A stretch of DNA of 34,844 nucleotides. It comes from Reclinomonas americana ATCC 50394 (taxonomy: Eukaryota). The notes under the pieces were generated by a model that did not search any database, was not told the origin of the DNA, and saw nothing but the letters and a program-made list of their open reading frames with translations. The DNA is taken from assembly GCA_048213135.1 (NCBI GenBank), contig PS015260.1:24433-59276 (forward strand). The letters run 5' to 3'. The stretch's first letter is position 1, and each line of letters starts with the position of its first letter. The position numbers and the translations under genes were made by a program. Below are positions 2-32,874 of this stretch, one piece after another.

Positions 2-3000
2 GCCGACACGTGTGAGTTCGCGACTGGCTGCCGCGTGTTCCGCGCGACCATCACGCCAAATGGATCGAGTGGCGGCGGTGCCTACAAGTTGTGTGTGGCG
101 GCCAACAACGGACCGTACGTGTCGTCGGGGGAGTCGTTCACTGCCGGATTCATGACGGCCGGTGGTCTCAGTGCGAGCAGCAGCGCGGCGCCCACATCAA
201 CGCTATCGACCACTGACGACATGGACAGCAGCCCTGCCACCCCGAAGCCGAACATGTCAACACTGGCAGTGACGGCAACCACGATCCAGTTCACGTTTGC
301 TCGCGAGTTCTACCGCCGCCCGCGTGTGTTGCTCGGCTTTGCCAGTGTCGGTCGTCAGGGCGCCGCTGGCCCAATTTCCACTCTTGCCAACGAGCCGACT
401 GACGGCACGTTCGCATTCTGTGCGGAGCCGGTGGTGACTGTGGCGCAACTGTCGACTCGATGCCATGGCGTGTCAAGTGACGGCCAGCTGGGACCCACCA
501 TCACACTAAGTTGCGTTCACAGCGATAAAGGACAAGGCATTGAAGTGTGTGACTTATCATCTTCCCTCCGCTTTGCTGCATGTGCAGGCTACCTGGCGTA
601 CTACGTGCATCAGACGAATGCTCTGTCGATGGATGGTCAGCGCACGCTGACAAGCGCAGCGTGGGCGTCGGATGCGGTAAACAAGAACAGCTCAAGTGTT
701 GCGTGATTTTTGTGTACTGTCGTCTCTCTCGCGCCTGCTCATCCAGCTTACTTCGTGTCATGCACAGTTGGTAAGCGTGTCATCGGCGTACCAGTTTGCG
801 TCGGTGCCAGCCGTTCCCGTGGCCGTGATCGGTGTAATGTCGATGCGGCAGACGGCTGCCGGCAATGATGGACGCGTTCGCGGCGACAGCTTTTCGGTGA
901 CAAGCAACTCAGCCTCGCGCTCGAGTTTCGTCATCAAGGGCACGGTGAGCGGCGACTCGCGCATGGAGGCGGTATCGGCACGCTTTGCTGTGGCACCGAC
1001 ACGCGCCGACAGCACCAACAACAGCGGATTTGTCATGCTGTCGGGAGGTGCGTTCTCATCCTCCTCTTTGGTTGGAGCGACATCAGGTTGTCTCTGTGCC
1101 TGACCCTTGCGTGTGGCGCAGAGACGACGCACACCAGCGCCGTGACGATGCAGACCGCCAGTCTGGTGACGGCGTCGACACCGAATGGCCTGCTGCGCGC
1201 CACCATCAGTGTGCAGCTGTTCCTGCGTGGGTGGAAGTCGTCGGCAATCACAGTGCAGAACCGCATCGATCAGCAGTCGCTGCAGTTCACCACCAAGCGC
1301 CTCGGCAATGAGGACTATGTGACGGCGATCTCGTACAGCGCCAGCGGGGCGGACGCGTCCGACATTGAGTACGTGACGTGGGTGGCGATTGGTCGTGCGG
1401 CGCAAGGCGCGCCGATCTCGTGCCCTGTCGGCTACAGCGGCTCCAACTGCGGCGTGTGCACGCTGGCCGACGGTACCACGACGTGCTCACTGAACCGACG
1501 TGCGGTGCTGAGCTGTGCCTACGGCACCACTCAGATTGTTGCTGAGTGTACCGAGGGTCGCGAGTGCTTTGAGGCTTACGGCTCGGCGCAATGTGGATGC
1601 TCGGCGAACGGTGCCGTGTGCGTGAGTAGCGGCGACTGCTGCTCTGGCAGCTGCGATTCTGGTCTGTGTGTGCCAGCGTGCAGCCCGACTACGACGTGCT
1701 CTGGTCATGGAACGTGCAACACCGATGGAACGTGCACTTGCACAAGTCCTTGGAGCGGTGAGTGATGTGATTGCTGTCGACCGTGAATTCGCTGCTGTTC
1801 AATGCTGACTTGTTCCCGCGAACAGGGCCTGCGTGCTCGACCTGTTCTGCTAGTCCTATTGTTTCCCTTGGATACATTGGCAGCTGGACATCATTGGCCT
1901 CCAGCAGTGACGGCACCAAGCTGGTGGCTAGAGAGAGTGGCAGTGGTCGGATCTACACCTCCACTGATAGCGGTGCGACGTGGACAGCACGTGAGTCCAG
2001 TCGCAGTTGGAGTGGGGTGGCATCCAGCAGTGACGGCACCAAATTGGTGGCTGTGGTGTTTGGTGGCCAAATCTACACCTCCACTGACTCTGGCGTGACG
2101 TGGACAGCTCGCGAGTCCAATCGCTCCTGGAGGTCTGTGGCCTCCGGCAGTGACGGCAGTAATCTCGTCGCGGTTGCTCAGGCAGACAAGATTTACACCT
2201 CCACGGACTCTGGCGCCACGTGGACGCCTCGCGAGTCCGATCGCAACTGGTGGTCAGTGGCCTCCAGCAGCGATGGCACCAAACTGGTGGCTGTGGAGAA
2301 TAACGGGCAGATCTACACGTCTGCCGACTCGGGCATAACATGGGCAGCTCGTGAGACCAATCGCTTTTGGCAGTCAGTGGCCTCCAACAGTGACGGCACC
2401 ACATTGGTGGCTGTGGCGATTGGCGATCAGATTTACACTTCCACTGACTTGGGCGTGACATGGACAGCTCGTGAATCCAATCGCAGTTGGAATTCAGTCA
2501 CCTCCAGCAGTGACGGCAGCAAGCTGGTGGCTGTGGCGAATGGTGGTCAGATTTACACTTCGACCGACTCTGGAGTGACATGGACGCCTCGTGATTCCAC
2601 TCGTGACTGGCTATCAGTGACCTCCAACAGTGACGGCACCAAGTTGGTGGCTGGGGTTCGCCTCGGGCAGATGTATACCTCCACTGACTCTGGCGTGACG
2701 TGGACTGGGGTGACTTCCGAAGGGCTACATGGGAAGAATACCTGGCAGGAAGTGGCCTCCAACAGTGACGGCTCCAAGCTTGTTGCAGCTGTGAATAGTG
2801 GTCAGTTGTACACCTCCACTGACTCGGGTGTGACATGGACGGCTCGCGAGCCCAATCGCAACTGGAGAGGAGTGGCCTCCAGCAACGATGGCACCAAGTT
2901 GGCGGCCGTGGCGCAAGGCGATTGGATCTACACCTCTACTGACTCTGGTGTGACATGGACTGCTCGTGATTCCACTCGCCGCTGGACTGCAGTGGCCTCC

Positions 3001-3540
3001 AGCAGTGACGGCAGCAAGCTGGTGGCTGTAGCTTTGTTTGGGCAGATCTACACCTCCACTGACTCTGGCGTGACATGGACGGCTCGTGATTCCCTTCGCA
3101 ACTGGACTGCAGTGGCCTCCAGCAGTGACGGAACCAAGCTGGTGGCTGCACAACAATTTAACCAAATCTACACATCTACTGACTCGGGCGTGACATGGAC
3201 GGCTCGTGATTCCAGTCGCGGTTGGCAATCAGTGGCCTCCAGCAGCGATGGCACCAAGCTGGTGGCTGTGGTGAACGGTGGCCAGATCTACACCTCCACT
3301 GACTCGGGTGTGACATGGACGCCTCGTGAATCGAATCGCGCCTGGACTGCAGTGGCCTCCAGCAGTGACGGCACGAAGCTGGCGGCTGTTGTGAGCAATG
3401 GTCAACTGTACATCTCCACTGACTCTGGTGTAACGTGGACGGCTCGTGATTCCAATCGCAACTGGCTGTCAGTGGCTTCCAGCAGTGACGGCACCCAGAT
3501 TGTGGCCAGTGCGGATCAGGTGTACATTTTCCCGTGTTGA
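2..3540 (+). CDS. Probable extracellular protein, 5' partial: about 3 H-type-lectin-like domains, Cys-rich/EGF-like region, 14-blade Asp-box (BNR) beta-propeller
   Basis: ORFs 35-706, 696-1103, 1088-1765 and 1771-3540 join in frame via GT-AG introns 510-587, 698-767, 1048-1121 and 1758-1825. The last junction rebuilds an EGF motif, CSGHGTCNTDGTCTCTSPWSGPAC. Motifs FTFAREFYRRPRVLLGF, YQFASVPAVPVAVIGV and YVTWVAIG resemble H-type lectin domains (recognised by eye). Repeated SxDxGxTW Asp-box. Confidence 0.8.
1885..3537 (+). repeat. Coding tandem repeat, 14 x 120 nt (40-aa blades)
   Basis: GCCTCCAGCAGTGACGGC-like core recurs about every 120 nt (135 nt between units 7 and 8). Consensus WxxVASSSDGTKLVAVxxxGQIYTSTDSGVTWTARESNRx. 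Confidence 0.97.
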
Positions 3541-3769
3541 CCATTTTTTCCTGCACGCTCATGTTGTTTCGAACGATGTGGTCGCGGGAGAACGACTCCC
3601 CGCTCTTCGTTAGCTTCCACTCTCTTCCCATTTTTCTTGCCTTGTTGTTCGTGCCCTTGCGCCCTTCATCAGTTCCTTTCCGCGACCTGCGGGGTTTTGT
3701 AGTGTACAAGATTTGGCTTGTCAGTTCTGGCTCACAATCAGCGATATGGNNNNNNNNNNNNNNNNNNNN

Positions 3770-5211
3770 CGATGCCGATACGCTGTTGAAGTTTGTGCAG
3801 GACTGCCGCGCCATTGGCATCACGTGCCCCATCTTTCTTGGCGTCATGGTATGTGTGTCTCTATTTTTTTTTTACAAGGGGCACTGGACGGAGGCTTTCG
3901 TCCCTAATCTCCGCGCATACAGCCGATTCGCGAGTACGACCAGTGGGCACGCATGGTGGAGCGCTCTCACACGGTCGTTCCGGCCTCGGTACACGCACGA
4001 CTGGATGCAGTGAAGCACAATCCGGTGGAGGTGCGTCGCGTTGGTGTCGACGTGTGTGCCGAGCTGTGCCAGGAGCTATTCCGGCGTGGCCACCGCTACT
4101 TTTACCTGTACACCATGGACATTGTCGAGTGTGTGCCGCAAATCCTGCAAAAGCTTGGATGGGCTCCCGAATCTCCCGCCAAGCCCTATCCGTGGGAGGC
4201 GGTGCGCGTGCTTTTTGTGGTTGCCTTGCCTTCTGCTGACTCCCATTCTCATGCAAACATCGTCGTTTCAGTCGTACACCGGCACGCGGACTTCCGAGAG
4301 CGTACGCCCCATTTACTGGCAGCACCGACCGTACTCGTACTGCCTGCGCACGCGTCACTGGGGCCAGAACTTCCCGTCAGGTCTGTGGACCATGGGCCAA
4401 GAGTCGCGTCCAGACTTTCTCCCCTTTGATGGTGCCGACTACTTGAGCAATCACTACGTGCCGGGAGTTGGGTCTTGTGTGGGGTTTTGAGAATTGCACG
4501 GATGCCGAACGAATCTGACGTGAGTGGCGCTCCTGCAGACACCATTCGATCGTCGCAAGGCATGGCATCCGTCACCGTCGAGCGACGAGGACATCCAGGC
4601 CGTGTTTGAGAACTTTGTGGCTGCCGATCCTGAGGTTCCCGCACTGCCGTGGATGCCACACGCGCGTGCCATGTTGCCGCTTGAGATGCGCGACAGTCTC
4701 ATGCAGGTGCGCACTGCTCGAGAGTGTGTTTTTGTCGTCCCCTCCTCCTCCTACTCACATCTGACGTTGTCGTATTACAACAGCTGGTGCGATCAGGCTG
4801 CTGGCCCATCAATTGGCAGCAGTGCGTGGAGGGTGCATCGTCCGAGGACCCGCTAGTAGGCTGGGGCGATGAGGGCGGCGTTGTGTATCAAAAGGTGGTG
4901 TTCTTTTCCCCCACTTGTGCGAAGGCGACTGAGAGATGAGTGTGTTGATTCCACGTCGCTGCATGCGGCAGGCGTACATTGAGTTTTTCTGCTCGCCGGA
5001 GAAGCTTGCGACGCTGTTGCCGCGGCTGCAGTCGAGCAAGTCCCTGACGTATGCGGTTACAAACCGAGAAGGTTTGTGTGCGTCGAGTCTGCGCTGCTGC
5101 CGCCCTCTCATCAACGCGACTACAGGTGACGTGTGGCACACAAACATGCACCGATCCGCCACCGTGACGGCTGGTCTGTTCCCCCGACGTGAGATGATTG
5201 GAGCCACGGTG
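3770..5211 (+). CDS. MTHFR: Methylenetetrahydrofolate reductase-like, eukaryotic type, divergent, partial at both gaps
   Basis: Introns 3849-3922, 4202-4271, 4467-4538, 4707-4783, 4895-4971 and 5072-5125 give [65 protein letters not shown]. These match the end of the catalytic domain plus the regulatory domain. Confidence 0.88.
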
Positions 5212-5276
5212 GTGAGTATTCGNNNNNNNNNNNNNNNNNNNNCAACAACGACCTTCCCACGTGTTGCCTCGCTCAC

Positions 5277-6155
5277 CTTTGGACTGGTCAAATCGCCAAC
5301 CGTGACCCAATTGACAAACGCACCGACGCCCGGATGCGCCTCAAACCAATCCTTCTCCGTCTGCAGATCCTTATGCTCCGCAATGTTCAACAAGCTGCAC
5401 ACCACCACCACCACCACCACCACCATCAACACCCCACAATGCACCACAACGCAGCACGCCTCCACCCACACAGACCACACATCAATCAAAAAGTACTCCT
5501 CCGGCAACACAATGCCCTTCTCCTGCTGCAACACGGCCGCACCGCGCGACTTGATCTGCCGCATATTTTTTGTTGTTGTGAATTACCGGAAACGCTCTCG
5601 GCGGCGGCGGGAAGAGGAAAGAAACGCCACAAACCAAGTCGTACGCAAACGATAGCGAGCCGTCCGGGTTGACAATCGTCGGCTCATTGCCCTGCATTGA
5701 TGAGATGCATCAATGAATGGATGAATGCACATTCACAAAGAGACACTCCACTGATGCTCTCTCTCTCTCTCTCTCTCTCTGTGCGTGTGTTAGTGTGTTT
5801 GTGTGAGTGTGATTGTGTGTGTGTGTGAGTGTGTGTGAGTGTGATTGTGTGTGTGTGTGAGTGTGTGTGAGTGTGTGTGTGAGTGTGTGTGAGTGTGTGT
5901 GTGAGTGTGTGACGCTATTTCTCACACTGTCATGCACTCTTCTCTCACTATTCCTCTTCCTCTTTCTCTCTCTCTCTCTCTCTCTCACTCTCACTCTCTG
6001 TCTCACTTTCTCACTTCTCACGCAACTCGGAACAACACATTCCACCGTCCATCAACCAACCGCGTGTCGACCACATGCATGCGGTCCGCATCAAACGACG
6101 CAATGACCACCGCCGCACAAAGCAACACAGAGACCAGCACGCACAACCCGCGCAT
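5277..6155 (-). CDS. Secreted protein of a protist PTP-like (tyrosine-phosphatase-fold) family, 3' end lost in gap
   Basis: Exons 6155-6027, 5691-5635, 5555-5476 and 5394-5277 splice to MRGLCVLVSVLLCAAVVIA (signal peptide)...RMHVVD...NVLFRGNEP...FAYDL...LPEEYFLIDVCLLN...EKDWFEAHPGVG...GDLTSP. The family call is from motif recall, and the catalytic CX5R motif is not visible. Confidence 0.6.
5757..6010. repeat. Compound (CT)n/(GT,GAGT)n microsatellite in intron
   Basis: Direct inspection; lies within intron 5692-6026. Confidence 0.95.
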
Positions 6156-6474: not shown

Positions 6475-9065
6475 ATGCTCTCTGGACCCGCCTACAATGA
6501 GCGCAAGCGCACTGGTCGTCAGTCGATGTTGACGACTGTGGTGGTGACGTTGGCGACTCTGCTGACCATCTTTGTCGCCTATCGCGTGCTCTTTGGCGGC
6601 AACAACAACAACAACTCTAACAACAACAACAATGCGTCTTCATCGTCGTCGACGGCGAGCGCGGGCGGTGACGTCACGCGCGATGGAGTCATTCACCAGC
6701 GCGTGGTGATGCATAAGCGCTCGACACCGCCGCAGTTGGACGAGAATGTGTCGCTGGAGGACGCCGAGTGCAAGCAGCGCGCGGCAAACTTTGCCCAGCT
6801 GTTCACCGAAATCAAGAATGGAATGGCCGGCACCGATAAGACCGGCGGAGAGGTACACTTTGCAGTGATTGTGCCACGTGTCCGCCACGTGCTCATTTGG
6901 TGGCGCAGGTGGCAGCGTTCCGCTATGTGCGACACAAGCCGAGTGCGGCGGAGGAGGGCCTCCGGCACCGGTTGGACGAGTTNNNNNNNNNNNNNNNNNN
7001 NNNNNNNNNNNNNNNNNNNNNNNNNNNNNNNNNNNNNNNNNNNNNNNNNNNNNNNNNNNNNNNNNNNNNNNNNNNNNNNNNNNNNNNNNNNNNNNNNNNN
7101 NNNNNNNNNNNNNNNNNNNNNNNNNNNNNNNNNNNNNNNNNNNNNNNNNNNNNNNNNNNNNNNNNNNNNNNNNNNNNNNNNNNNNNNNNNNNNNNNNNNN
7201 NNNNNNNNNNNNNNNNNNNNNNNNNNNNNNNNNNNNNNNNNNNNNNNNNNNNNNNNNNNNNNNNNNNNNNNNNNNNNNNNNNNNNNNNNNNNNNNNNNNN
7301 NNNNNNNNNNNNNNNNNNNNNNNNNNNNNNNNNNNNNNNNNNNNNNNNNNNNNNNNNNNNNNNNNNNNNNNNNNNNNNNNNNNNNNNNNGCTGCGGCCGT
7401 TGGCGCGTGACGGGACCATTCTGTTCACGGCGGTGCGCATCACGCCGCGCAATCGCAAGTTCTCGGCGTGGACGGTCAACTGGGCGTTGAATGCCAAGCA
7501 GAATGGCATTCGCCAGCCGCTGGTAGTGTGCGCTGATCGGTACACGTACACGGTGCTGCAGGAGGCGGGTATGCCGACTCGCACGCTGTTGCTGGATGAG
7601 ACGGAGTGGGAGCCGGCCAAGAAGGCCGCCAACCTCAAGTGGCTGTACGGCCACCTGATGCTGTCGCTCGGCTACGATGTTCTGTACACCGACTCGTCGA
7701 TTCTCTTCCATCGCGACCCGATGGGCTACCTCAATCAGCACCTGCCGTTCCCGCTGCCGGCCAACGTGCAGGCCGACCCGCCGTTTGCCGATGTGTTGTT
7801 CATGTCGGCGCAGAGTGCGAGCCCCAATGCGGCCACGTTTGACGACATTCGACCGGTGCGTGTGCTGGCGCCGTGGAACTACGCGCCTCGCTGCCCCGAT
7901 CTCGACGAGCAGGTGAAGCGCTGCAATCGCTTCCCGCACCTCTACTGCGCCAACCCCGAATTCTTCATGGCGCACGCCAATGAGCGCACCCTCATGCTCT
8001 TCTCTGACATGGTCGACGAGATGGAGACGCGTGGCGACGATCGTCTCGGTCTCAACAGCATTCTCGACATGCACGTGGCCGCCGGTCTGCTGATCGAGGT
8101 GCGTGCAACAATTCGGATTGCATGCAACTCGTTTTTCATCCCCTGCGTCTCACTCTCAATGGTTGCAGATTCTCGATGTGCGCCTCTTCCACACCAAGGA
8201 GGGCTACAAGGCACTGGCCAAGTCCGACGACCCGCGCGCCCGTGAAAACAACCTCGCGCCGATCGCCACCTCGTTTATTGAGGAGCACCGTATGAAGCGC
8301 GAACAGGCCATTCGTGACTCGGGACTGTGGCGCCTCTCGTACACCGTGGAGGAGCAGCAGCGCGAGAACGAGCACGAGGAGCGCATGCGCAAGGAGGATA
8401 TTGCTCGTGAGGTTTGTTTGTTTGTTTGTTGACCGACGTGTGCGGTACAGCAGTGTCTCACTGCCCGCTCTCCACAGCAACATTATCGTCAGCAGCCGCC
8501 CTCCAGGTCGCCGCCGATGCCGCCTCCACCGGCCGCCGACTGGGAATCGGCACAAAAGGAGTTTGACTTGCAGCAGCGTCTGACTGGACTTGCGGCACCG
8601 ATCTACGCCGCTATGCAACACCAGCAGCAGCAGCAGCAACAACAGCAACAAGTGCTCACAAACGAGCCGGTCCCACTGCAGCAGCAGCAGCAGCAGCAGC
8701 CACCGCCGCCGCCACCACCACCACCACAGATGCAACAGGCACCACCTGCGCCTCCGTCTCCGCCGTCGGTTCCGCAGTATGACATGACTCCGCCTGCGCC
8801 GTCAGTGCCACAGTCGCCACCGCCCACACCGACGCCGCAGTACGAGGCCCCGCCGCCGCCGCAGCAGCAGCAGCAGCACCAACAGCAGCAGCAACAAATG
8901 TATCACCAACAGCAGCAGCAGGCTCCGGGAGCACCGCCGGTGCCGCCACACATGATGCACTTGGCTGCGCCGCACCTCCAGGCGCACTTCCAGCAAGTGC
9001 AGACCTACTATCAGCTGCAGCAGCAACAACAGCATCAGCAGCAGCAGCAGTTGCTACTCCAGCAG

Positions 9066-9100
<35 letters not shown>

Positions 9101-9548
9101 ATTGCTGCGTCAACAGCAGCTCCAGCAGCAGCAGCAGCAGATGCCTCAGCAGGCGCAGGGTCGTCGCCAACAGCCGCCGCCGCCTCCGCCACCGCCGACT
9201 CCGCCGCAGTATGCTCAGTACGCTCCTCCCGCACACGGAATGCCACGGCAGCAGCAGCAGATGCAGCCGCCGGTCCCGCCGGGAGGGCGATCATTCAGCG
9301 AGCAGCAGATGCGCCAAAAGGAGATGGAGCGCCAGCGCGGCTATCCTTCTCCCCCTCCTTCGTCGGCACCGCCGCCACCGCCACCTCCACCACCTCAGCA
9401 GCAGCAGCAGCATCGTCAAAGAAGACCGCGTGCGCCGTCATCGCCATCGCCGCCTCCACCGCAGGCTGCTGTCGCCGATGATTACATGGCCGCCATTGCT
9501 GCCGCTCGTCAGGCTTCGCAGCGTCAGCAGCAGCCGGGACAACAACAA

Positions 9549-9584
<36 letters not shown>

Positions 9585-9749
9585 CAACAGCAGCGGCGGC
9601 CGCCCATGCCTCCGCAGCACCAGCAGCAGCAGCAGCAGTATCCTGGCAGCCACGCAGCACGCGCAGCGCAGATTGCGGCCGCACAAGAACGTGCTCGAGC
9701 CACTCACGGCGATCAGCAGAATCAGCAGCAGCACCAAGCGTATCTTTAT

Positions 9750-9781
<32 letters not shown>

Positions 9782-9866
9782 ACAACAACAACAACAACCA
9801 CAATATCACTATCACCACCAGCAGCAGCATGACCAGCAGCAGTTCCTGCACCCGGTGCACTACTAG
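6475..9866 (+). CDS. Type II membrane nucleotide-diphospho-sugar transferase-like (GT77-like) protein with C-terminal polyQ/polyP tail
   Basis: N-terminal TM TVVVTLATLLTIFVAY; motifs NW...LVVCAD and LSLGYDVLYTDSSILFHRDP. Introns 6853-6908, 8099-8169 and 8412-8477 join the ORFs in frame to the Q/P-rich ORF 8517-9866. Contains gap 6983-7389. Confidence 0.72.
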
Positions 9867-10060
9867 TTTGTGTTTTTGGTTTGCACGAGGGGTGAGGAGT
9901 GGAGAGCGAGAAAGAGAAATGTTTTACGATTCGATCGCGATGTCGACAAAAATGAAGAAAAACTACATAGGTTACTTCATCTAGGACCGGCAAGGTGTCA
10001 CCAAGCACCGTCAAAGTCGTCAGTTGTCCCGCAACATGTTTTTCCGACAATTCTTGTTGT

Positions 10061-12003
10061 ATGTGTGCTCGTGAATTGGTATTCTCGGCGTGGCAGGAAC
10101 ATCGCCGCCAGTCGCTCCATGAGCCCGAGTTTGGCCCCACTGTGCCACTACTCAACATGGTCACAGATGCTTTGCGCACAGAGGTCGTGGCAAGCTCCGA
10201 CAGCGACAGTGCCGCAGAGATCGTTCGTGTGGTGGCCATTTCAAGCACACACAGCGGAAGACAGGTCTGCGTTGCATCTCCACGAGTTTGTGTGTGCATG
10301 TGTGTTGTGCTCAGTGTTGTCATAGTTGATTGCCATGGCGAGCTGGAACCGCGTGCATGTCTTCGATGCTGTGAGTATGAGTGTGCTGTGCACATTCCCC
10401 ACCAGTGATTCGCGTGCTGCTCCACACGCTATCGGCCTCGCTTTTTCTCCCTCTGATGAGACCATGCTGACGATTGCATTCCCGCTGCCGGACTTGCTGC
10501 AACTTCCCTTCGAGGTCACGGTGTGGGATTTGCATTCTCCAGGCCGTGAGTCGGCGTCTGAGTGGTCAGCGCACAGTCGTTGGCGACAAACGGTTGAAAC
10601 AGACGGAGGGTTGTGTGTGGCAGTGACGCACGACACGAAGTCTGTGTGCTACGCGACCGAGAATACCGTCCGCGTGCTGCATGGTGTGAACGGCGAGTGC
10701 ACGTGTGAGGCTGTTGACGGCGACCAGGTGGTACCCTTCCGAGCCATGATGGTGACCAGCGACGACAGATTCCTGTTGCTTGCCAGAAACGAGGTGCTGG
10801 AGTGGCGCGATTTGTCGCATGCGAAGCTCCAGGTGACTCGTCAGTGCCGTGTGGAGCTCGGTCGCGTCTCATCGTTGGCATTGTCGCGTGATGGCGGCTG
10901 GCTGGCTGTGGGTGTCACCACAGGCCATGTGGAGGTGCGATCAGCAGAGACTGGCGAGCTGAGGTTGAAGGTTGTGGCACGCGGAACCGATGCCAGCACA
11001 GGGTGGATATCGACACTTCCCATTGCATCCTTCTCCGACGATGGGCTGCTGCTGTTCACCGGCAACAGTTGCATAGTGGGACATATTCGTGTTTCCAAGT
11101 GCTTGCTCTGACCTCGTTTCCTCGGTTGCAGGTGGCATGGCGGCAGTGCACAGCGCCATCACAGGTCGCTGTTTGGCTCTCCTTGCTGTGCAGATGGTCG
11201 GACACGGAGGCAAGATTGATGCTTTTGGTGGCGGTTTCATGCACGACAACGGCATGATCACCGCGGATGGCAGTGGCATCTACGTGTGGCACGGTTCGCA
11301 AGAATATGTGAGTCTTTCCTCTGTCTTTCTCTGTCGCTCACCACAAGCACCAGGTCCGACGTGGATGCCACTGTTGCACATGCGCAAGGAACTCGAAGAC
11401 GTGCAGTGCGCCAAGGCGGCACTGCAGGACTTGGAAGCCAATGCCGGTGTCGACTGCGAGTCACTTCCGCTGTTCGTGATGCGGTGTTTCATGGAGGAGG
11501 AGGCACAATCACTGCTGCACGTGTATGGTGACTCGTCGAGTCGGCGCCTGCCTCCACCACGGAGACCTACGGTGGAGGATTTGGGTGTGATTATGGGCGC
11601 TGATTGTTGGCGCGTTGTGGGCGAGCTGCTTTATCCACTGGTGGAGGCTTCTTTTCGTGCCCAGTTTCACGACGACTCGCAATCGTGGGCCCGCAAAATC
11701 ACTGGCATGCTGCTCGAGCTGGAGATGCCTTTGCTAATCGCCTTGCTGGAGACGCCACTCTACCTGCAATCCATGGTGCAGGAGGCGGTGCAAGCCCTTT
11801 GTGGCAGCAAAGATGTTCTTCGTGATCTCCTCTTCCCACTGGTGGAGGCGGCTTGTGCTGCCCGACATGCATACTATGCACGCGCAGTCATGGTCACGGA
11901 GATGATGGTGGAGTTGGGGACGGACCGAATCGTTGAGCTGCTTCAGTCGCCGCCTGCGCTGGATTCCAAGGTGCAGGAGTTGCTGCAGCTCCTCAATGAA
12001 TAG
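10061..12003 (+). CDS. WD40-like repeat protein with two C-terminal MLLE (PABC) domains, paralogue A
   Basis: Introns 10265-10325, 11068-11131 and 11294-11353. WD-like VSSLALSRDGGWLAVGVTTGHVEVRSAETGE. MLLE motif GELLYPLVE...ARKITGMLLE...LLETPLYLQSMVQEAVQAL, followed by a degenerate second copy. Confidence 0.8.
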
Positions 12004-12070
12004 ATTGTTTCAGCTCTTGAAGAACTTCGCAGAGTGATCAGAGGCTGCCTGCATGTCCTGTGTAGCCGAC

Positions 12071-13891: not shown

Positions 13892-13909
13892 CAGCAAGAA
13901 ATGTACTGT

Positions 13910-20400: not shown

Positions 20401-22589
20401 NNNNNNNNNNNNNNNNNNNNNNNNNNNNNNNNNNNNNNNNNNNNNNNNNNNNNNNNNNNNNNNNNNNNNNNNNNNNNNNNNNNNNNNNNNNNNNNNNNNN
20501 NNNNNNNNNNNNNNNNNNNNNNNNNNNNNNNNNNNNNNNNNNNNNNNNNNNNNNNNNNNNNNNNNNNNNNNNNNNNNNNNNNNNNNNNNNNNNNNNNNNN
20601 NNNNNNNNNNNNNNNNNNNNNNNNNNNNNNNNNNNNNNNNNNNNNNNNNNNNNNNNNNNNNNNNNNNNNNNNNNNNNNNNNNNNNNNNNNNNNNNNNNNN
20701 NNNNNNNNNNNNNNNNNNNNNNNNNNNNNNNNNNNNNNNNNNNNNNNNNNNNNNNNNNNNNNNNNNNNNNNNNNNNNNNNNNNNNNNNNNNNNNNNNNNN
20801 NNNNNNNNNNNNNNNNNNNNNNNNNNNNNNNNNNTCTTCCCCCTCCTTCTCCCTCATCCACCCGTCTCCCCATGTCCCCCTCTCATTCCTTCTTTGTGCA
20901 AACAGGTCGCTGTTCCGATGCACATTCTCGCCGAAGTGCCACCGCAATACGGAACCGTCTCTGCGCTGGGCTACCAGACGCGACGACGCTTTGTACATCC
21001 ACTCCCCGTGCGCGTGCTGCCACCACCCGGCACCAGTGGCATTGATGAGCTGTTTCGTTGCCCGTCCTTCCCCTTGGTATGAGAGTCGATCGCTCATCTT
21101 GCTTCATCTTCATTGCCGCAGCACCGAATCCGAACTGCGTGACGAAAACGTGCGCCTTCGTCAGAAACTGGCTGACGCGCAAGCGGCGCTGGTGCTGCTG
21201 GAGGCGCAGGTGGAGGTGCATGCGGCTGCGGCGGTAAAGGCCGAGGCCACCGCCGAGGCGCGTGCCATGGCGGCTGCCGAAATGGCGGCGGCGGCGGCGA
21301 CGGCTTTGGCGCGCGAGGAACACGAGCAAGAGAAGCGGCACTCGCGTGAGTTTACCGGCGACGCGATCCAGCTCGACGACATGGTGGTGGAGGTGCAGGG
21401 GCAGGAGGAGTACGAATTGGAGACGGCGGAGGTGCCATCGCGCGAACTGGCGACAGGGGAGAAGCGCTCAAGCCTCCCGCAGACGTCAAGTGTCGCCTCC
21501 GATGGTGGTGGTAGTGCTCCTCGTCGGCTGTCGCGAGAACCGTCGAGTGAGATTGACATTCCCGACGTGCCGCCAGCGCCACCTTCGCGCGAGACGCACT
21601 TGTCGCCACCGTCTGCCTCCCTGGCTCTGGACGGCACTGGTCGGCGTCGTGTGTCATCGCCGCTGCCGCCACTCGACGATCATGCCACGGTGAATTTCTT
21701 GGTCGACGAGAGTGCTCCGCCAATGGCTGAGCCACCGGTGGCGGCCGTCGTCAAGCACCACTCTGGCGCAGTGGAGCGTGAATCGAACAGCCCCGAACCA
21801 CCGCAGCTGCCGCCGGCACCCAACGATCGGCCGCTGTTGCGCCCGCTGGAGTTGGCGATTGATGTGAATGGACGTGCCAGTGGCACGTCGTGGGTCGACG
21901 ATGTGGACGAGGAGGACGGCGTCATTGGCGCCATGGCCTCGTCACCGGCGCACCCGCCAATCCCACGTCTGCCGCTGGAGCAGCTGTCGCCGGCGTCGGC
22001 CATGCAGAGACGGAAAAAGTCGACCGACTCGAACGCAGCGGCGGCGGCATCGACCGCCATTGCCGCGCTAAAGGAGGAGCAGAGACGTAAGGTGGAGGAG
22101 GACGCGGCGCGGCGCAAGGCCGAGGCTGCACTACCGGCGCTGACACCAACACCCGGTGGCGACTTTGTGTCGCCGACCGCCAAGTCGGGTGTGGTGCGAA
22201 AGAAGGTCGTGCGCAAGGTGGTTCGACGATCGTCGGCCACCTCCACCGCCTCCGCCTCCGATCCAGCCACCTCGCCGATCGTGGCGGGCACTCCTGCCTC
22301 GCGCGCCAGCTCCGACAATATGCAGTCGCCGGCGTCGAGTGGGAGCACTCCGCTGCGGTACACGTCGCCGAATCGCGCCGCCGCCGCCAACGGCAACGGC
22401 AACGGTACCAGCAGCAATGGCACCAATGGTGCTGCGCTGTCACCTGTGCGAATCCAAGCGTCGCCCATCCGGCTGCAGCCGCCAGTGAAGCCACCGAGTC
22501 CGGCTGCAGCGGCGGCCGCGGCGGCTGTCGCTACAGTTGCGGCGGGTCGCAGACACTCGCGCAGCGATAGCGGAGGTCGTCCCGTGTGA
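17439..22589 (+). CDS. N-myristoylated RGLG/copine-type vWA protein with coiled coil and low-complexity tail; middle exons lie inverted at 19412-20014
   Basis: MGCRSS N-terminus; GLIFCFDFSSS; SFDPDNLVPAYGFGDSRTR (about 18007-18061); MHILAEVPPQY (about 20907 onward); joins ORF 20991-22589 via intron 21052-21121. Confidence 0.78.
19412..20014 (-). CDS. Middle exons of the copine-type vWA gene, on a gap-bounded inverted block
   Basis: DTALFSL...YHVLVIITTG|...TLDAIVEASYYP|LSIVCVGVGEGPW|...RKFDNFHFV fills exactly the missing part between the + strand exons. Confidence 0.85.
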
Positions 22590-23062: not shown

Positions 23063-26000
23063 TTACTCGTTGGTCTTCACATGCTGCAGCCAGATGCGAG
23101 TGCGGAAAATCTGCCGAAGAAAAAAAGTNNNNNNNNNNNNNNNNNNNNNNNNNNNNNNNNNNNNNNNNNNNNNNNNNNNNNNNNNNNNNNNNNNNNNNNN
23201 NNNNNNNNNNNNNNNNNNNNNNNNNNNNNNNNNNNNNNNNNNNNNNNNNNNNNNNNNNNNNNNNNNNNNNNNNNNNNNNNNNNNNNNNNNNNNNNNNNNN
23301 NNNNNNNNNNNNNNNNNNNNNNNNNNNNNNNNNNNNNNNNNNNNNNNNNNNNNNNNNNNNNNNNNNNNNNNNNNNNNNNNNNNNNNNNNNNNNNNNNNNN
23401 NNNNNNNNNNNNNNNNNNNNNNNNNNNNNNNNNNNNNNNNNNNNNNNNNNNNNNNNNNNNNNNNNNCAGCAGCAACAACACCAGCAGCAGCAGCAGCATC
23501 AGCATCAGCGCATGATGCAGCAGTACCATGCTGGCCATCACCGCGCGCAGCACTTTGCCGGCGGCAGTCCGAACTTTGGTCCGCAGCAGACGCCGCAGAG
23601 TGGCTTCTTCCACGGCCAGCCGGTGCAGATGCGCCCGCGCAGCCACTCCATGTCGACTGGTGCGCCGGGCATGATGACTGGCGGGTTCCGCAACCAGCAG
23701 CCCATGCGTCAGCACCTCCCGCTGCACCACCACCACGCTCACCAGCAGCAGCAGCAGCAGCAGCAGCAGGCGTCGCCGCAGCCGCATCCGTGGTCCACGG
23801 GTGGCGGCCAGTACCAGCAGGCACCGCCGCCGCGCTTTGCGGCACCTGCGGCCCCGCGCCACCAGTCGGCCATGGACTTTATGATGCCGCCGTCGGCGAC
23901 GCAACCTGCGGCCGCCGCCACGGCCCCGACCTACGCGTCCACTGGCAACTCGCCGTCGCCGCCTTCTGGCTCGCCGTCGCGCAGCCCGCAGCCGTACCTG
24001 CCTCCGCATGCGCGCATGCAGTCGCAACCGCAGCCGCCGCAGCAGCAATCGTCGTCATCGTCGATTGGCAGCTTTATGCAGTCGTCGCCCCCGCAGCAGC
24101 AGCAACAGCAGTCGCCGTCGGCGTCGCCGCAGCCGCGCATGATTCCGCAATCGCCGAGCTCGCCTCCGTCTTCGGCGTCGTCGTCGCCGCACCTGGGCGG
24201 TTTGGCATCGCCCGGCTCGCCGCAGCAGCAGCCGACCAGAATCGTGGAGACGGTGTACGGCTACTATGCGGTCGAGTTCAAGAACGGACGTCGCGCCACC
24301 TTCCGCATGATGGAGGGCGGCCTGACGTACCAGCCCGGCGACTGTGTGGTGGTCGAGGGCGACCGTGGCTACGACTTGGGCGTGGTGCTCAACATGGTGC
24401 CACCGGAGAAGGTCCTGCATCCGGACCGCGTGCAGCGCCGCGTTCTGCGCCCGGCCTTGCCTCGTGAAGTGGAGTCACTGAGCGAGAAGGCCCGCGAGGA
24501 GGACATGGTGCTGAAGGTGTGCCAGGAGAAGAGCCTCGAGCACGGCCTGCCCATGGAACTCGTGTATGCCGAGTACCAGCACGACCGCAACAAGCTGACG
24601 TTCTACTACCGTGCTGAGGCTCGCATCGACTTCCGTGACTTGGTTCGCGAACTCTTCAAGGTATGTCTTCCTCCTCCTCCTCATTCTTCTTCTCTCTGCA
24701 TAGCATTGTGTTTCTCACCNNNNNNNNNNNNNNNNNNNNNNNNNNNNNNNNNNNNNNNNNNNNNNNNNNNNNNNNNNNNNNNNNNNNNNNNNNNNNNNNN
24801 NNNNNNNNNNNNNNNNNNNNNNNNNNNNNNNNNNNNNNNNNNNNNNNNNNNNNNNNNNNNNNNNNNNNNNNNNNNNNNNNNNNNNNNNNNNNNNNNNNNN
24901 NNNNNNNNNNNNNNNNNNNNNNNNNNNNNNNNNNNNNNNNNNNNNNNNNNNNNNNNNNNNNNNNNNNNNNNNNNNNNNNNNNNNNNNNNNNNNNNNNNNN
25001 NNNNNNNNNNNNNNNNNNNNNNNNNNNNNNNNNNNNNNNNNNNNNNNNNNNNNNNNNNNNNNNNNNNNTTGCTGCTGCTGGTGCTGCTTGTTGTCCTCCA
25101 TGTCCAGCGTGGCAAGTGCGTCCGACACACCGCCATCCAGATCCTCTCCGTCATCATCGTGCGCCGCATGCGACGACGGCGAGAATGCAGCGTGCAAGCC
25201 TATCGGAGGAGAAGACAGAACGTGAGCACAACGCACAATGAAGGGAGGGAGGGGGGACACACGACAGTCATGCATGATTTTGCACTCACCGGAAGTTCCC
25301 CAGAGGCTCTGCGAGGCCGATTCCACCGTGCCAATCTTGACGGACAAACCCGATGATGAGGGCGACGATGGAGCAGAAGACGACGACGAAGGCGACGACG
25401 ACGACGACAGAGAAGACGAAGAGGGTCCGACCGAGGAGGACGAGGAGAAGAAGGAACGATTGTCGCCCACCGTCGAGATCTTCACCGAGAGACCGCCCTT
25501 GGCGGCACCCTCAAAGAGAGACGACGACGACGAGGACGAGGAAGAGGAAGAGGTGACACCAACAGGGGCGCCAGAGCCACCAGTCGAAGACGACGATTCA
25601 AATGACATGGGACGAAATGCGAAACAGAGGTAGATGATATATAAGGGAAGGGAAATCAAGGAAAAGAGAGAGTGTGGCGGCAGATAGACACACACACGCG
25701 CGTGTAGTAAGTAGGTAGTAGGTGGGGAAGGGAGTAGTAGGTTATAGGAAAAGTAGCCGGGGGAGGGGATGGGAGCACTTTCTCTTCTCTCTCACACGAA
25801 TGCAGAAAAACACGAATACGAGACAACGTCCCGAGACCAAGAGTAAGCCCGAGCGACCAAAGGAGAAACTCTGTCCCGAACACTCACCACCGAGGCGGGA
25901 AGCGCAAAGGGCGCTGGCTGTTGCTGCTGCTGCTGCTGTTGTTGTTGTTGCTGTAAAGGACTTGCATAAAGCATTGCGCGGGAAGGAGTAGGCGACGACG

Positions 26001-27273
26001 ATGGCGATGCGGTCATGAGCGGCGACCCGGCAAGCATGTGATGATGATGATGATGGTGACTGTGCATGACGTGTGGCGGAGGCAGTGGCAAGAGAGGCAC
26101 GGCCATGGCGGCACCATCTTGTCCGCCCGCGTCACTGTCAACGTCGCCGCCTCCGCCGCCCATCATCATCATGTGCATGTTACTGGTGGGCGTGGTGGCC
26201 TCAAACAGCCCCGCGCCTAGTGACAAGTGCCGCGGTGACTTGTTGGCGGCAAACGAGCGGTGGTGTGTCAGTGGCTGGTAAGGCGACGACATGGACGAGG
26301 AGGATGCGGGCGAGTGCGCTTGTAGTGGCGGGGATGCAGTCGGGTCGCTGTCGCCTGCAGACACGCCCCAGGCAGCGCTGGAGAGGGAAGAAAGAGAGAG
26401 AGTGAGTGAGTGTGAGGTGAACAGCGCGACGAGTGATCACACGCACCGAATCTGCGAGAGCGCCGCGCATTGCTTAGGCGACCGCGTGCCCCATGCTGCC
26501 GGACCCACCAGCACGCCATCCCTGCACACACACAGAGGCATGAGAGAAGGCAAGCGCGCACAAACAAACAAGCGCGAGATGGCCACACAGCATAAAGCGG
26601 GAAAATCACACCACGCGCAAGACCGAACACACGCACGCGCGTCGGCATCAAAGGCAACGCGCGCGCAAGAGACAGAGGCATACCACACAGCGCGGCACAA
26701 CGCACACAAAGAAGACACGCAAAAGAAAAGAACGAGCAAGAGTTTGTCGGAAATGGCCGACGACGACGACTAACCAAGAGCTTGCCACTGTGTCCATGCC
26801 GCCTGCGCTCTGCTGTGTGAGACACTGGAGGGGAGACAACTGCACACACCATGACTCACCATGTGCTGCTGCCGCTGCTGCTGCCGCCTGTTGCTGCTGT
26901 TCCATTAGTGATGAAGGCAGCGGCTGCATGCCATACTGCTGTTGCTGTTGTTGCTGTTGCTGCTGCTGCTTGGCATCGTATGTGTCGTGCTCGTCTGTGG
27001 GAAACAAGCGCTGTCGTTGTTGTTGTTGTTGATGCTGAAAGTGTTGTTGTTGTTGATAGGCCAGTGGGCTTTCGTGCACCATCGTGGAGGAGGCGGGAGA
27101 GGGCATGGTGGTGCCGGCAGCGGGACTGCCGCTGCCTCCACTGCCGCTGCTGCTTGTTTGAAACAGACACAAAAGAACGCAATGATGATTATGAGAGATT
27201 CACCGATACTCGACTCTCTCTGTGTGCACACAGACCTCACAGGCGAGAAGGCGCTGGTGGCTGCAGCGAACAT
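23063..27273 (-). CDS. PSP1 C-terminal domain protein with long Q/S/P-rich N-terminus; large exon inverted at 23467-24660
   Basis: Minus-strand N-terminal low-complexity exons 27273-25070 end in polyQ at a gap. The last exon IFRTRIWLQHVKTNE* (23110-23063) completes the domain. Confidence 0.75.
23467..24660 (+). CDS. PSP1-C domain exon of the above gene, on a gap-bounded inverted block
   Basis: YAVEFK...GDCVVVEGDRGYDLG...AEYQHDRNKLTFYYRAEARIDFRDLVRELFK followed by a GTATGT donor at 24661. Confidence 0.88.
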
Positions 27274-27925: not shown

Positions 27926-30017
27926 ATGAGCGTCAAGAAGTCACGACCAGTCTCTCGCGCTGAGTATCTCTCACGATTGGAGAGCTCCACCAGCAACGGC
28001 CTTGGTGGACTAGGCACAACAACCCGAGGAGGAGGAGGAGCAACAGGAGTTCTCACAGGAAGCACAGGAGCAGGTGAGCAGCAAACAACAACAACAGAAA
28101 GAAAAAAGGGCGCTCTTGATTGCCTCTGCTTGGTTTTTTTTCTAATCACAACGCCTCTCTCAATGAGAAAAAGGTGTGCGCACTCTGGCGGCCTCGCGAG
28201 TGGCGCCCTCGCCGGTGGCGCGAGCTGGGTCGCCCTCTGCCACACAAAGGACAGCGTTCAGTGGCACAGGCACTCGATATCTGCGGCCGGAAATACAACG
28301 GCAGAGTTGCGCGCGCGAGAGAGAAGGGAGAGAGGGAGGGAGAGGGGGGAAGGGAGGAGAGAGAGGGAGGGAGGGAGGGAATGCAGACACACTCACTCCC
28401 TATCTTCCTCACTTTGTCAATCGTCTTCTCATGCGCTCTGCAGTCCTTTCAGTAGTTTGTGGCTCAGACTCTCTGCCGGTCATTCAGTCGCTCCTCACCC
28501 ACTCAGTCACTCACTCGCGCATCATAGTTAATCGTCTTCTCATGCGCTCTGGACCTTTAGTTGTTGACGACTCGACTCTGTCGGTCATTCAGTCGCTCCT
28601 CACCCACTCACTCACTCACTCGCGCATCTAGTCAATCGTCTTCTCATGCGCTCCGCGGACCTTTCAGTTGTTGGTGACTCTGATCGGTCTCTCGTCGCTC
28701 CCTCACTGACCCACTGTCCCTGGCACTCACTCATTCACTTGCGCATTCTGTCAGTTGTTTTCTCCTGCGCTCTGCAACCCTCTCAGTAATTCGTGGCTCA
28801 GACTCTCCGCTGATCACTCAGTTGCTCACTCTCTCACTGCCTCCTGCATTCGCTGTCTCCCTTCCTCACTCACCGGTCAGTCGTCTACTCACGCGCTCTG
28901 AGTCCTTCAGTAGTTCGTGACTCGGACCGTTTGCCGTTCACTCAGTCGCCTACTCACTCACTCCTGCCTCGCTGAATCCCTCCCTCACTCACCGGTCAGT
29001 TGTCTACTCCTGAGCTCTGAGTCCTTCGGTAGTTCGTGACTCAGACCCTTTGCCGGTCACTCGCTCCCTCATTCACTGCGCTTGCACTTGCTAGTCAGTC
29101 GTCTTCTCCTGCGCTCTGCAACCCTTTCAGTAGCTCGTGGCTCAGACTCTCCGCTGGTCACTCAGTGCTTTCAATGCCTCCTGCATTCACTGCATTCACT
29201 GCCTCCCTCCCTCACTGACCCACTGTCCCTTGCATTCTTTGCCTCCATCACTCAGTCAGTCGTCTACCAATACGCTCTGCAGTCCTTTCAGTAGTTCGTG
29301 ACTCGGACTCTGCTTCTCCTTCCTCGCTCACTCCCTTCCTCATTTCCCCTCCCTTCCCCTATTCCCTCCCACAGTCAACGCCAAGGGCACTGAGAGACAA
29401 GCAACTGTCCGCGGATCATTCTCGTGGGCGGCCACTGGAGTGCAGGAGGTGCCGTCGGAGGCGTGGGTCGAGCCGAGATACAAGATGCCGGTGCCGACGA
29501 CGTTTTTGCCGCGCAATCGCATGCCGCAGCCGCCACCGAGTGCCGACAGCTCGGCCGATGCGAGTGAGCGTGCGAGTGTGGCGTACAAGGCGGTGGTGAG
29601 GAATCCGGTGCATTTGCGCGAGGCGGAGATTACGTACTTTAGGACGCCGCCGACGGAGCTGTCGTGGCACGGCACCAAGGATGCCATGGAGGCGCAGGGC
29701 AAGCATTGCTTGGCCGAGGCCGCCGGCGAGTACACGCGCAAGTCGCGATCGGGAACGTACGTTGTTGTTGTTGCTCTCTCTCTCACTCTCTGTGAGAAGC
29801 GCTCATCTCTCTCTCTCTCTCGCTCCGCAGATTGTATCGACCGTCGCCGCAGCTGGCCTCCAACGGTGAGCACCTGTCGTTGCAAGTGAGCAGTCGACAG
29901 GCCAAGGCCAACAGCAAGGGTCGCTTTGCCGGCCCTGTCGGCGAATTCTCCAAGTACATGGACCAGGCGGTGCTGGGCAAGGAGAAGATCCCGTTCACCA
30001 ACAAGGTGGCCGTGTAG
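27926..30017 (+). CDS. Hypothetical protein, three exons
   Basis: Exons 27926-28073, 29375-29756 and 29831-30017 join in frame with GT-AG boundaries and GC3-rich codons. No recognised domain. Confidence 0.6.
28174..28316 (+). ncRNA. Candidate intronic structured RNA, unclassified
   Basis: Ends pair (GTGTGCGCACTCTG with CAGAGTTGCGCGCGC). Internal stems CTCGCG/CGCGAG and TGCCAC/GTGGCA. G-U pairs favour the + strand. Confidence 0.3.
28416..29310 (+). repeat. Intronic tandem array, 8 diverged units with about 70-nt core and variable CT-rich linkers
   Basis: Units start at 28416, 28527, 28631, 28750, 28876, 28995, 29094 and 29255. Core GTCARTCGTCTTCTC.TGCGCTCTG...TTCAGTAGTTCGTG.CTCAGACTCT...GGTCACTCAGT. 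Confidence 0.9.
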
Positions 30018-30461
30018 CAGCTGCAGTCTGTGATGATGACCGGCCAGTGAATGGGCGATTGTAGTACTCGCGTGGTGGAGCAGTGCGGGGTGCAGGGTGC
30101 GGGTACGCTTCGCTGCACGTCGACCTGTGCGACGTGGAGACGATTCGCTTCATCAGCATGGTTGATTGGTAGACAACACCAATGATACGATGACCAAGTC
30201 CAACCATATCCAAACATCAACACGAACACCAGTCTTGAGGCAGCGCAGGTTTTTGCTAGCTCTCGCGAGAACTGTGTCGATCGTCGGTCACTGGAGAGCG
30301 AGGATTCATCGCTTACGATCTGTGGTTGCTGTCTTTGTGCGTGAGCAAAACGTAGTGCTGACAAGCTCCATTTATTCGCACATTCACAATCTCTCCTCTC
30401 TCTACCTCGCCAAAAAATCAAAACAATAAAAGAAGAAAACACCCCGCTGCGCACAGCCGAC

Positions 30462-31126
30462 TTACACAAATGGCCGACGGCCGACACCAGTGCCGGCATT
30501 GACTACATTGGGGTAGCGGAAGGTGGTCTCCTCCGTGCCAAAGAGCATCGCATCAATGGCCTCCACACCCTGCATGCACGAGTGGTCCTGGTTGGCCACC
30601 TCGTACTTCCACGCGCCGAAACGGCCGCGGGAGTGGATGCCGAAGGGCAGGAGTGCGTCGTCGACCTTCTTCACCAGTTCGTCACTGCGCGCACCGACAA
30701 GGAGAGTGAGTAAGCAGAGGAGAGAGAGAGGGCGATTAGGGGAAGGGAGGGGAAAGGGAGGGAAAGGGAGGGAAAGGGAGGGAAAGGGAGAGAGAGGAAG
30801 GAATGAAACAGTGAGAGAGAAAGAATGAAAAAAGAGAGGCAGAGAGATAATGAGAAAAGGAGACGGAGAGAGAGAGAGAGGGCGAGAAGGAAGAACAGAC
30901 AGTCGCACAAGTAGCAGAGAACACACTGCCCACTCGATCACTCTTCTTTTTCTCTCCTTCTCTTCGCTCACCACTCACACGCTGTACCACATGCGCTCTA
31001 ACTCTCTCCCTTCTTCAAAAACACAAACGCGCTGCACAACAAAGAACAAAACAGCCCAGTACAGCGCACTATCCACGAAGTCTCTCGTCACAATTTCTCT
31101 CTCTCCCACACACACACTCGTTTCTT

Positions 31127-31164
<38 letters not shown>

Positions 31165-32874
31165 GCCAAACGCATAGTAAGGAAAGACGCTCAACCAAGT
31201 CACGCACAGCACACACTGTCTCGTCTCTTCCCCTCTCCCACTTCCCTAACCACTCATACTCACCACGCACGACAAAGCACAGCACAGCACATGCTCTCAC
31301 TCCCTCCTCTCCTCTCCTCTCTCTCCTCCTCTCTCCTCTCCGTTCCCCTCTCTCCCCTTTGCGCTCACCGCTTGAGGAACGGCACGGGGTAGCCATAGTT
31401 CAGTCGCGTGTACCACCTCGACACAATCTTGCTCGGCTCCTCCAGCAGACCGCACAGTCGCAGGCCAGCAATCACCGCCTCGGTCACATCCTCCGGTCGC
31501 GGCGGCACGCCCAGCTCACCGCCCGGGAGCGCCGGTCGAGTAGTGCTCTCCGACACCTCCACAATCAGCGAGTAGTACCTGTGTTGGCAGAGAGAGTGAG
31601 CCACAGTGTGTTAATCGTTCTTCTGCGCCCAGCAGCGCAACTTGGAGAGATCCGAGTTGGGCACCACAGACGCCGCAAAGTTGCTCATCACCGTCACGCG
31701 GTAGAACACGTACTCGTCCTCGGGGAAGTACATCCATGACACATCGGCAAACTCCTCCTTCAGCTGCCCCTCGATGCCCAGACCCACCAGATTCACCGAC
31801 TGGCGCACAAAGCCGGGTGCCACCGCCTCCAGTCCGGCAACGTCGGTCCTGTCAGAGAGGGAAAAGAGTGAGATAATGTGGCCACTCTTCCCCCATTTCT
31901 CTCGCTTTCACAGCATTCCATTCACTGCGCTTCTCCATCAATTTTTCTCTGTCTCTCGCTCATTTCATCTCTCTCCCTATTCCTTCTCTATTTTCCTCTC
32001 TCCTTCCCCTTTCCCCTCCCTTTTTTCTCCCTCTCTCCTTCCCCTTCTCCCTCCCTTCTCCCCCTTTCCCCTTTCCCCCCTCTCCACCCTTCCCACTCTT
32101 CCCCCTTCTACCCCACCCCCACTCACATCGTGGCCATGTGATCCGCGGGCATGGTGCTGAGCAAATGATCAAACTTGTACACACCGCCGTCGGNNNNNNN
32201 NNNNNNNNNNNNNCCGTGTGCACCTCCTTGCTGGCGGTGGAGACGTGCGTCACGCGCTGGCCAAACTTGACCTTGGACTTGTCGCACACCTCGTAGAGGT
32301 TCTTCCAGATGGCGCCAGTGCCACCAAACTTGGGGAAGCGGAAGGTGGCATTCGGACCCCAGTTGCTGGCCACGTTGCGCGCGACCATGTTGCGCAGCAC
32401 GACCTTCAGATCGGTAATCGCCACGCGCTCTCCAATCCACGACGAGTTCATATCGCGCGGATGCGTCGCCCACACCTTGCAATTGTACGGCGTCATGAAC
32501 ACATCCGCAATGCCCTTGCTGGATGAGAAGCGGGACGATCAGTTGTCTGCCAACTGCTGCTGCCGGATCATACAGAGTACTTACCCAAAGCACGTGTGGA
32601 TAAACTCGTCAAAGTTGGCGGGTTTCGTGGCCAATCCCTTGCGCTCAGTCGCATCCACCAGTCCATCGAGACACTTGGTGAGGTCCTCGTCGGGCAACAA
32701 CCACACATTGTTCTGAAACGGATACGGCACTTGTCGCTGGCGCATAAACACCGTCACCTTGCGAATGTGCTCCTCCCACTCGTCCACCACGTGATCCATC
32801 AGTCGATCAAAGTACTTGTAGTGCGAGAACAGGCAGTGCACACCGTGATCAAACGTGAATCCCTCGGGAGTCGT
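30462..32874 (-). CDS. glf: UDP-galactopyranose mutase, eukaryotic type, exons 2 to end
   Basis: [108 protein letters not shown]. Confidence 0.93.

Follow-up and report, generated by a model that had tools for sequence, protein, structure and literature searches.

The stretch analyzed here, 34,844 nucleotides (nt) of Reclinomonas americana ATCC 50394 (assembly GCA_048213135.1, contig PS015260.1, positions 24,433 to 59,276 of the forward strand; hereafter the window, numbered from its first letter), is eukaryotic nuclear DNA of ~57% G+C that is interrupted by 12 runs of N and carries about a dozen intron-rich genes, the introns of which are short (mostly 54-90 nt). Specifically, the genes traced encode a BNR/EGF protein, MTHFR, a small protein of no family, a glycosyltransferase, two tandem WD40+MLLE paralogues, a BAP31-like, a Myb-like and one copine-like protein, PSP1, a Q-rich protein, one unnamed protein and UDP-galactopyranose mutase (UGM). 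Our subject is the 5' splice sites (donors) of these genes, which fall into two classes: those with G as the last exon base (-1G), and those without it, most of which carry the pattern of the first class displaced by one base into the intron.

Family names were taken from Pfam, PDB or homologue matches, with the exception of BAP31, which was recognised by eye; the nearest proteins in very large collections share 42-54% identity and come from scattered taxa. Exons were set by coordinate and every gene model translates without internal stops. It is important to note that all junctions were assumed to be GT-AG and were judged at the protein level, and that the sample is this one 35-kb window, to which all counts below refer.

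Two donor classes in the window

A preliminary description of this DNA had traced about 50 introns, 35-40 of them with -1G, and had listed 14 donors that lack it. Our independent tracing recovered 51 GT-AG introns, 37 with exonic -1G and 14 without, and the latter are exactly the 14 listed before, every donor string being present at the position and on the strand given for it (Table 1; a slash marks the cut). For the sake of the frame, one donor was set at 26849 and not at 26859, both positions having -1G. The -1G class, which had been said to carry mostly G at +5, does so in 31 of 37 cases, with T or C at +6 in 33 of 37, which gives a local consensus of G/GTNNGY. The donors without -1G show a different composition, that is, T at +3 in 12/14, G at +6 in 11/14 and T at +7 in 10/14. 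The combination of +3T with +6G occurs in 11 of these 14 donors vs. none of the 37 -1G donors (Fisher p=7.6e-9), and in only 103 of the 3133 non-donor GT dinucleotides that are not preceded by G (3.3%). The two donors outside the displaced group, C/GTACGT at 29757 and T/GTGAGT at 32126, are canonical, as had been described, whereas the motif proposed for the other 12, N/GTTRNG, holds for most of them and is not literally present at 21052 (GTTTCG) or 11068 (GTTGCA). In the normal register, +5G is absent from 11 of the 12, the sole case with it being 4467 (GTTGGG).

The displacement extends to the exon side. The base before GT in the donors without -1G (A7 C4 T3) is composed like the ordinary -2 position (A17 C12 G1 T7), and the second base before GT (A4 C4 G5 T1) like the ordinary -3 position (A10 C8 G15 T4). 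A slide of one base thus brings all positions, from the last exon bases through +7, into agreement with the -1G class, which bears out the suggestion that the intron +1G occupies the place of the missing -1G. The share of such donors, 12/51 (23.5%, 95% confidence interval (CI) 12.8-37.5%), agrees with the earlier figure of about a quarter of introns; counting the homology-fixed, independent sites alone (below) it is 5/50 (10%, CI 3.3-21.8%).

To quantify these patterns, we used a weight matrix for which the 37 -1G donors were the sole source and in which the +1 column was omitted. In the normal register the scores of the 12 sites lie between -4.6 and -11.8 bits, compared to a mean of -3.4 for random GT; slid by one base and scored with the same matrix, they reach +4.5 to +10.0 bits, so that all 12 score as well as ordinary donors and the one-base slide restores the species' own donor consensus at the equivalents of -2, -1 and +2 to +6. 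For reference, the -1G donors themselves average 5.9 bits (standard deviation 3.2, leave-one-out), and only 1.0% of 3917 decoy GT dinucleotides score at least 6 bits in the shifted register. None of the in-phase alternatives to the 12 sites is a good donor by its ordinary-register score, the highest among the usable ones being that of 677 (2.0 bits). Over both strands there are 22 copies of the string GTTGCGY, of which only seven are listed donors; therefore, the motif alone is not rare and its placement is the point. Usage of the patterns, with sense-strand exon occurrences as decoys, was as follows: G/GTNNGY, 29 donors and 49 decoys; H/GTTNNGY, 10 and 20; H/GTNNGY, 2 and 162; and G/GTTNNGY, 0 and 5. 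That is, a GTNNGY start without -1G is almost never used, and the same pattern following GT, not GG, serves as a donor no less readily than the standard one.

Two other origins of the class were considered and ruled out. An introner or repeat origin is rejected by the lack of shared sequence past the first seven bases of the 12 introns, among which we found, by reading, nothing in common beyond that point; and if these were TT-start introns cut after the G, 6 of the 12 would not end in AG.

Support from protein homology

Protein homology fixes half of the 12 sites, namely 17937, 18062, 19695, 31641 and the paralogous pair 11068/13148, which amounts to five independent cases. At these six the cut, as judged from the proteins, coincides with the GU and so lies one base upstream of the position that a shifted register would give it. 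For the copine-like gene, a HMMER search with the open frame of an inverted contig (19283-20221, minus strand) returned 266 relatives at E<=0.001, and the best 40 of these were aligned with the spliced model using MAFFT. Against these 40 homologues the model is gapless across 17937 (VLQS/FDPDN), 18062 (GFGDSRTR/DTALF, the spacing being identical in homologues) and 19695 (EASYYP/LSIV, where Pfam Copine positions 137 and 138 are continuous over the junction). A homologue search with the 64-amino-acid copine exon found no relatives. For UGM, 33 relatives were found from an exon query, 30 of which were aligned, and the exon upstream of 31641 matches solved structures in PDB; a PDB search with the exon downstream of it gave no match. 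Of the protein motifs previously offered as anchors, SRTR/DTALF, YYP/LSIV and LSK/YYSL are confirmed by the homologue alignments; LFR/GNEP is not, no family having been found for it.

We also compared each of these junctions with all frame-compatible, stop-free GT..AG alternatives within 60 nt, scoring whole proteins against a homologue profile that is blind to donor motifs. The listed junction ranked top at 17937 (12 isoforms, lead of 7.2 bits), 18062 (13 isoforms, 20.3 bits), 19695 (11 isoforms, 8.5 bits) and 31641 (12 isoforms, 12.8 bits), as well as at the canonical exception 32126 (12 isoforms), with the caveat that the profile columns were drawn from an alignment that had contained the model row. 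A Viterbi gene finder that relied on coding potential and bare GT/AG, with no further splice signal, recovered 11068, 21052 and 31641 but mis-spliced many genes and is too crude here.

The sites at 11068 and 13148 occupy the same intron position in the tandem paralogues, whose alignment is gapless over the junction, and within 60 nt of 13148 no other donor belongs to a frame-compatible GT..AG pair. The two genes (10090-12003 and 12054-13890) are duplicates in which MLLE domains come after the WD40 repeats; they share the positions and phases of their three introns, and the donor class is the same within each pair.

Two of the genes run across assembly errors. The contig at 19281-20221, flanked by the N gaps 18542-19280 and 20222-20834, lies inverted in the scaffold; when it is turned, CT-rich intron sequence runs on across both gaps. 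The path of the copine-like gene follows the plus strand to 18061, the minus strand from 20014 down to 19412, and the plus strand again from 20906, and the acceptor of the intron that begins at 18062 lies on the inverted contig, the intron ending at 20015 on the minus strand. Similarly, the first exon of UGM (ATG at 34354, FAD-binding GxGxxG motif) is on the plus strand within 33898-34844 and the rest of its exons follow on the minus strand, from 32874 downward (30300-32926), indicating a second orientation error across an N gap.

Table 1. Introns whose donors lack -1G. Scores (bits) are from the matrix of -1G donors in the canonical and the one-base-shifted register; for minus-strand introns the donor is at the higher coordinate.
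Intron	Strand	Donor	Length (nt)	Phase	Gene	Canonical	Shifted
510-587	+	A/GTTGCGT	78	1	BNR/EGF	-7.8	8.8
698-767	+	T/GTTGCGT	70	0	BNR/EGF		8.8
4467-4538	+	A/GTTGGGT	72	0	MTHFR regulatory domain		6.0
5692-6026	-	A/GTTGCGT	335	0	small secreted or membrane protein		10.0
11068-11131	+	A/GTTGCAT	64	1	WD40+MLLE paralogue A		4.5
13148-13210	+	A/GTTGCGT	63	1	WD40+MLLE paralogue B		7.4
14428-14514	-	C/GTTGCGC	87	2	BAP31-like		6.5
17937-18006	+	C/GTTAAGT	70	2	copine-like		
18062-18541 (start of long CT-rich intron reaching N gap)	+	A/GTTGAGA		0	copine-like		
19623-19695	-	C/GTTGCGT	73	2	copine-like, inverted contig		
21052-21121	+	T/GTTTCGT	70	2	copine-like, C-terminal part		5.8
31579-31641	-	A/GTTGCGC	63	2	UGM		
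29757-29830 (exception, ordinary register)	+	C/GTACGT				1.6	-4.0
31849-32126 (exception, ordinary register)	-	T/GTGAGT			UGM	4.7	-7.7

A few other features of the window concern its introns and repeats. Three introns, 510-587 (plus strand, 78 nt), 5395-5475 (minus, 81 nt) and 16352-16429 (minus, 78 nt), are in frame and stop-free, and their retention would keep the frame. The gene at 27926-30017 has, within its first intron of 1301 nt, tandem repeats of ~105 and ~119 nt (2.4-2.8 copies, 77-85% matches) at 28416-29077 on the plus strand. At the first-intron acceptor of the Q-rich gene (27147-27153, minus strand), repeated CAG follows, such that several in-frame acceptors 3 nt apart are possible. 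Long Q/P-rich tracts of mixed CAG/CAA are present in three unrelated genes (8590-9850 and 23467-24250 on the plus strand, 25900-27100 on the minus strand), and long CT, GT and GGGAA-type microsatellites are found in introns and intergenic DNA.

How the displaced signal may be read

The observation is real within the window, and the intron +1G standing in for -1G in a second register is, in our view, its best explanation. Specifically, we regard it as reasonably probable that the introns of the 12 sites are of the ordinary U2 type (GT-AG) and that their donor signal is read at a point one base deeper in the intron than the cut. The usual donor here, G/GTNNGY, holds its information at -1, +1, +2, +5 and +6, and the second class shows this pattern in the form H/GTTNNGY, with the intron +1G taking the place of the exonic -1G. 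In such a register, the U at +2 would face the position normally paired with +1G, and U+3, G+6 and Y+7 would replace +2, +5 and +6. The likeliest reader would be the 5' end of U1, a small nuclear RNA (snRNA), in a '+1 shifted' register, with the cut still made before the only GU and set by later U6/U5 steps; we infer both the reader and the later setting of the cut. Because the two bases before GT have the ordinary -3 and -2 compositions, the exon side is shifted too, which argues for an early reader that spans the junction, as U1 does, rather than one bound to the true exon end. Paired by hand with the conserved human U1 5' end, from which the host's U1 may differ, the sites form more pairs in the shifted than in the canonical register. 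The altered U1/U1C/Luc7/U6 recognition system that the preliminary description had proposed is not required by the pattern.

Alternatively, U1 might pair with +1G and +2U, bulge one U (+2 or +3), and resume pairing from +4 to +7. Such a register would give the same intron-side pattern (GU-U-NNGY), and two -1G donors without +5G, G/GTCCCGT at 16429 (intron 16352-16429, minus strand) and G/GTGGTGT at 4895 (4895-4971, plus strand), become GTNNGT when one base is skipped; a human 'bulge +2/+3' register is documented as well (PMC4856993). However, a bulge keeps -1 as -1 and thus predicts mostly -1G, as in 37/51 donors overall, whereas 0/11 of the +3T/+6G donors have it and G/GTTNNGY, as counted above, is never a donor here. 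Further, the two bases before GT match the ordinary -2/-3 and not -1/-2, the ordinary -2 being almost never G (1/37). Hence, the data favor shifted recognition over a bulged U, and we consider the latter unlikely to explain the class.

Two more distant possibilities were considered. A second, variant U1 snRNA or a dedicated factor with a 5' end matching GUUNNGU (i.e., a separate machinery for each class in place of one U1 with two registers) would suit a class as frequent (12/51) and as sharply defined as this one, especially given that a single base change opposite +2U would give full pairing and that variant U1 genes are present in other organisms. Standard U1 already accounts for the pattern with one mismatch, however, and an Rfam search of the window returned no RNA gene, hence no U1 or other snRNA, leaving a variant U1 without direct support there; we regard this option as quite improbable. 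It is also conceivable that the class is an artefact of motif-led mis-tracing, of chance GTTGCG strings, or of sequencing errors such as an extra T. The abundance of GTTGCGY relative to its use as a donor, the six sites lacking homology support, and the poor assembly (12 N gaps, two mis-oriented contigs) would be consistent with this. Against it, four junctions beat every frame-compatible alternative on motif-blind homologue profiles, 13148 has no other possible donor within 60 nt, the scoring matrix was drawn from the -1G class only, and no good in-phase alternative exists (the candidate at 14454, at 3.2 bits, would leave a 27-nt intron). Moreover, an error process would be independent of the base before GT, which rules out an extra T by sequencing error in particular. 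An artefact is therefore very improbable.

Several points nonetheless weigh against our preferred reading, i.e., one U1 in a shifted register. The sample is small and non-independent, with four sites in one copine-like gene and two in paralogues; for the pairing, the human U1 5' end stands in for that of the host; and 11068 is without the shifted equivalent of +5G. The donors at 16429 and 4895 fit a one-base bulge and not a shift, so the shift may not be the sole non-standard register here; at 16429 the spacing agrees with a Myb domain (Pfam profile positions 2-35), given what we take to be the Myb consensus spacing. In addition, six of the 12 sites (510, 698, 4467, 6026, 14514 and 21052) are not fixed by homology, their flanks being unconserved or of no family found, and the first three had already been described as less constrained, an assessment that our analysis upholds. 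The intron at 510-587 is in frame and stop-free, such that it is not demanded by the frame and need not be an intron; its donor has no better in-phase competitor and its flanks have no homologues. The donor at 698 has an in-phase alternative 21 nt upstream (G/GTAAAC at 677, 2.0 bits in the canonical register), and Pfam has no family for this N-terminal part of the BNR/EGF gene. At 4467, the in-phase alternatives (4458 and 4479) are likewise without -1G and both score below 0; the PDB alignment of the upstream MTHFR exon ends 16 residues short of the junction, the downstream exon has no PDB match, and a search for MTHFR exon homologues at E<=1e-8 found none. For the remaining three, 6026 has an in-frame TGA 6 nt past the donor and lies in a gene for which Pfam has no family; 14514 adjoins short BAP31-like exons that are also without a Pfam family and has, besides 14454, an in-phase alternative at 14535 of 0.1 bits; and the sole in-phase alternative to 21052, the flanks of which are unconserved, scores -4.3 bits.

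The weight of the finding hinges on its genome-wide validity. We give even chances to the broader proposition that, across the genome, a fifth or more of introns have their register displaced by one base from the cut, with exon ends lacking G served by H/GTTNNGY, which would make this the first organism to separate the U1 register from the cleavage site as a routine, perhaps with corresponding changes in U1, U6 or Prp8. If so, it would represent a natural system with thousands of shifted sites, in which one could ask what sets the cut after U1 leaves, a question studied so far with a few odd human sites and engineered reporters, and how much the +1G:C8 pair weighs in U1 binding. Coding constraints at exon ends could also be relieved, any last exon base being usable. 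And if the window is typical, gene finders trained on G/GTNNGY would mis-splice about a quarter of the introns.

Comparison with known systems

The closest known case is human. Shifted sites there number a few dozen among about 200,000, and shifted U1 pairing was reportedly described, by Roca and Krainer in 2009, at GUUAAGU-type human 5' splice sites. U12-type introns, whose donor box is RTATCCTT, likewise provide a second, sharply defined donor class in one genome. None of our 12 donors has that long box, and their acceptors and lengths resemble those of the other introns; a U12-type identity was therefore rejected.

Ordinary donors elsewhere show compensation between the exon-end G and the intron +5G (for example, Artemyeva-Isman and Porter 2021, PMC8283771). 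The window resembles this in that donors without -1G need more intron-side information, and the two exceptions, C/GTACGT and T/GTGAGT, behave so. Simple compensation fails for the 12 because -1G is absent and +5G is absent as well in 11 of them, so that they score below random GT. Tan et al. (2016, PMC4856993) report that human cells use the shifted register, crediting the special case to Roca and Krainer 2009, and that validated non-canonical registers account for ~1.5% of 201,541 human sites. That no altered machinery lies behind the human shifted sites is our own reading. The donors described here are like the bulge and asymmetric-loop registers treated in the same paper in that pairing is restored for the equivalents of +5G/+6U lying one base too deep, and unlike them, given that those registers retain -1G whereas the class here excludes -1G and has its exon side shifted too. 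A tunicate paper raises the shifted register as a possibility only, and our literature search, which left most subscription journals and supplements outside its reach, found no report of it at such frequency in any organism.

The likeness to the human shifted register is a close one: GU at the cut, U at +3, the consensus moved by one, and +1G in place of -1G. Indeed, the donor at 17937, C/GTTAAGT, has exactly the kind of motif on record for the human sites. Elsewhere the common form is not the human GTTAAGT but GTTGCGY, which follows the local GTNNGY consensus. And unlike the rare human sites, the displaced donors here make up 12 of the 51 in the window and 12 of the 14 without -1G.

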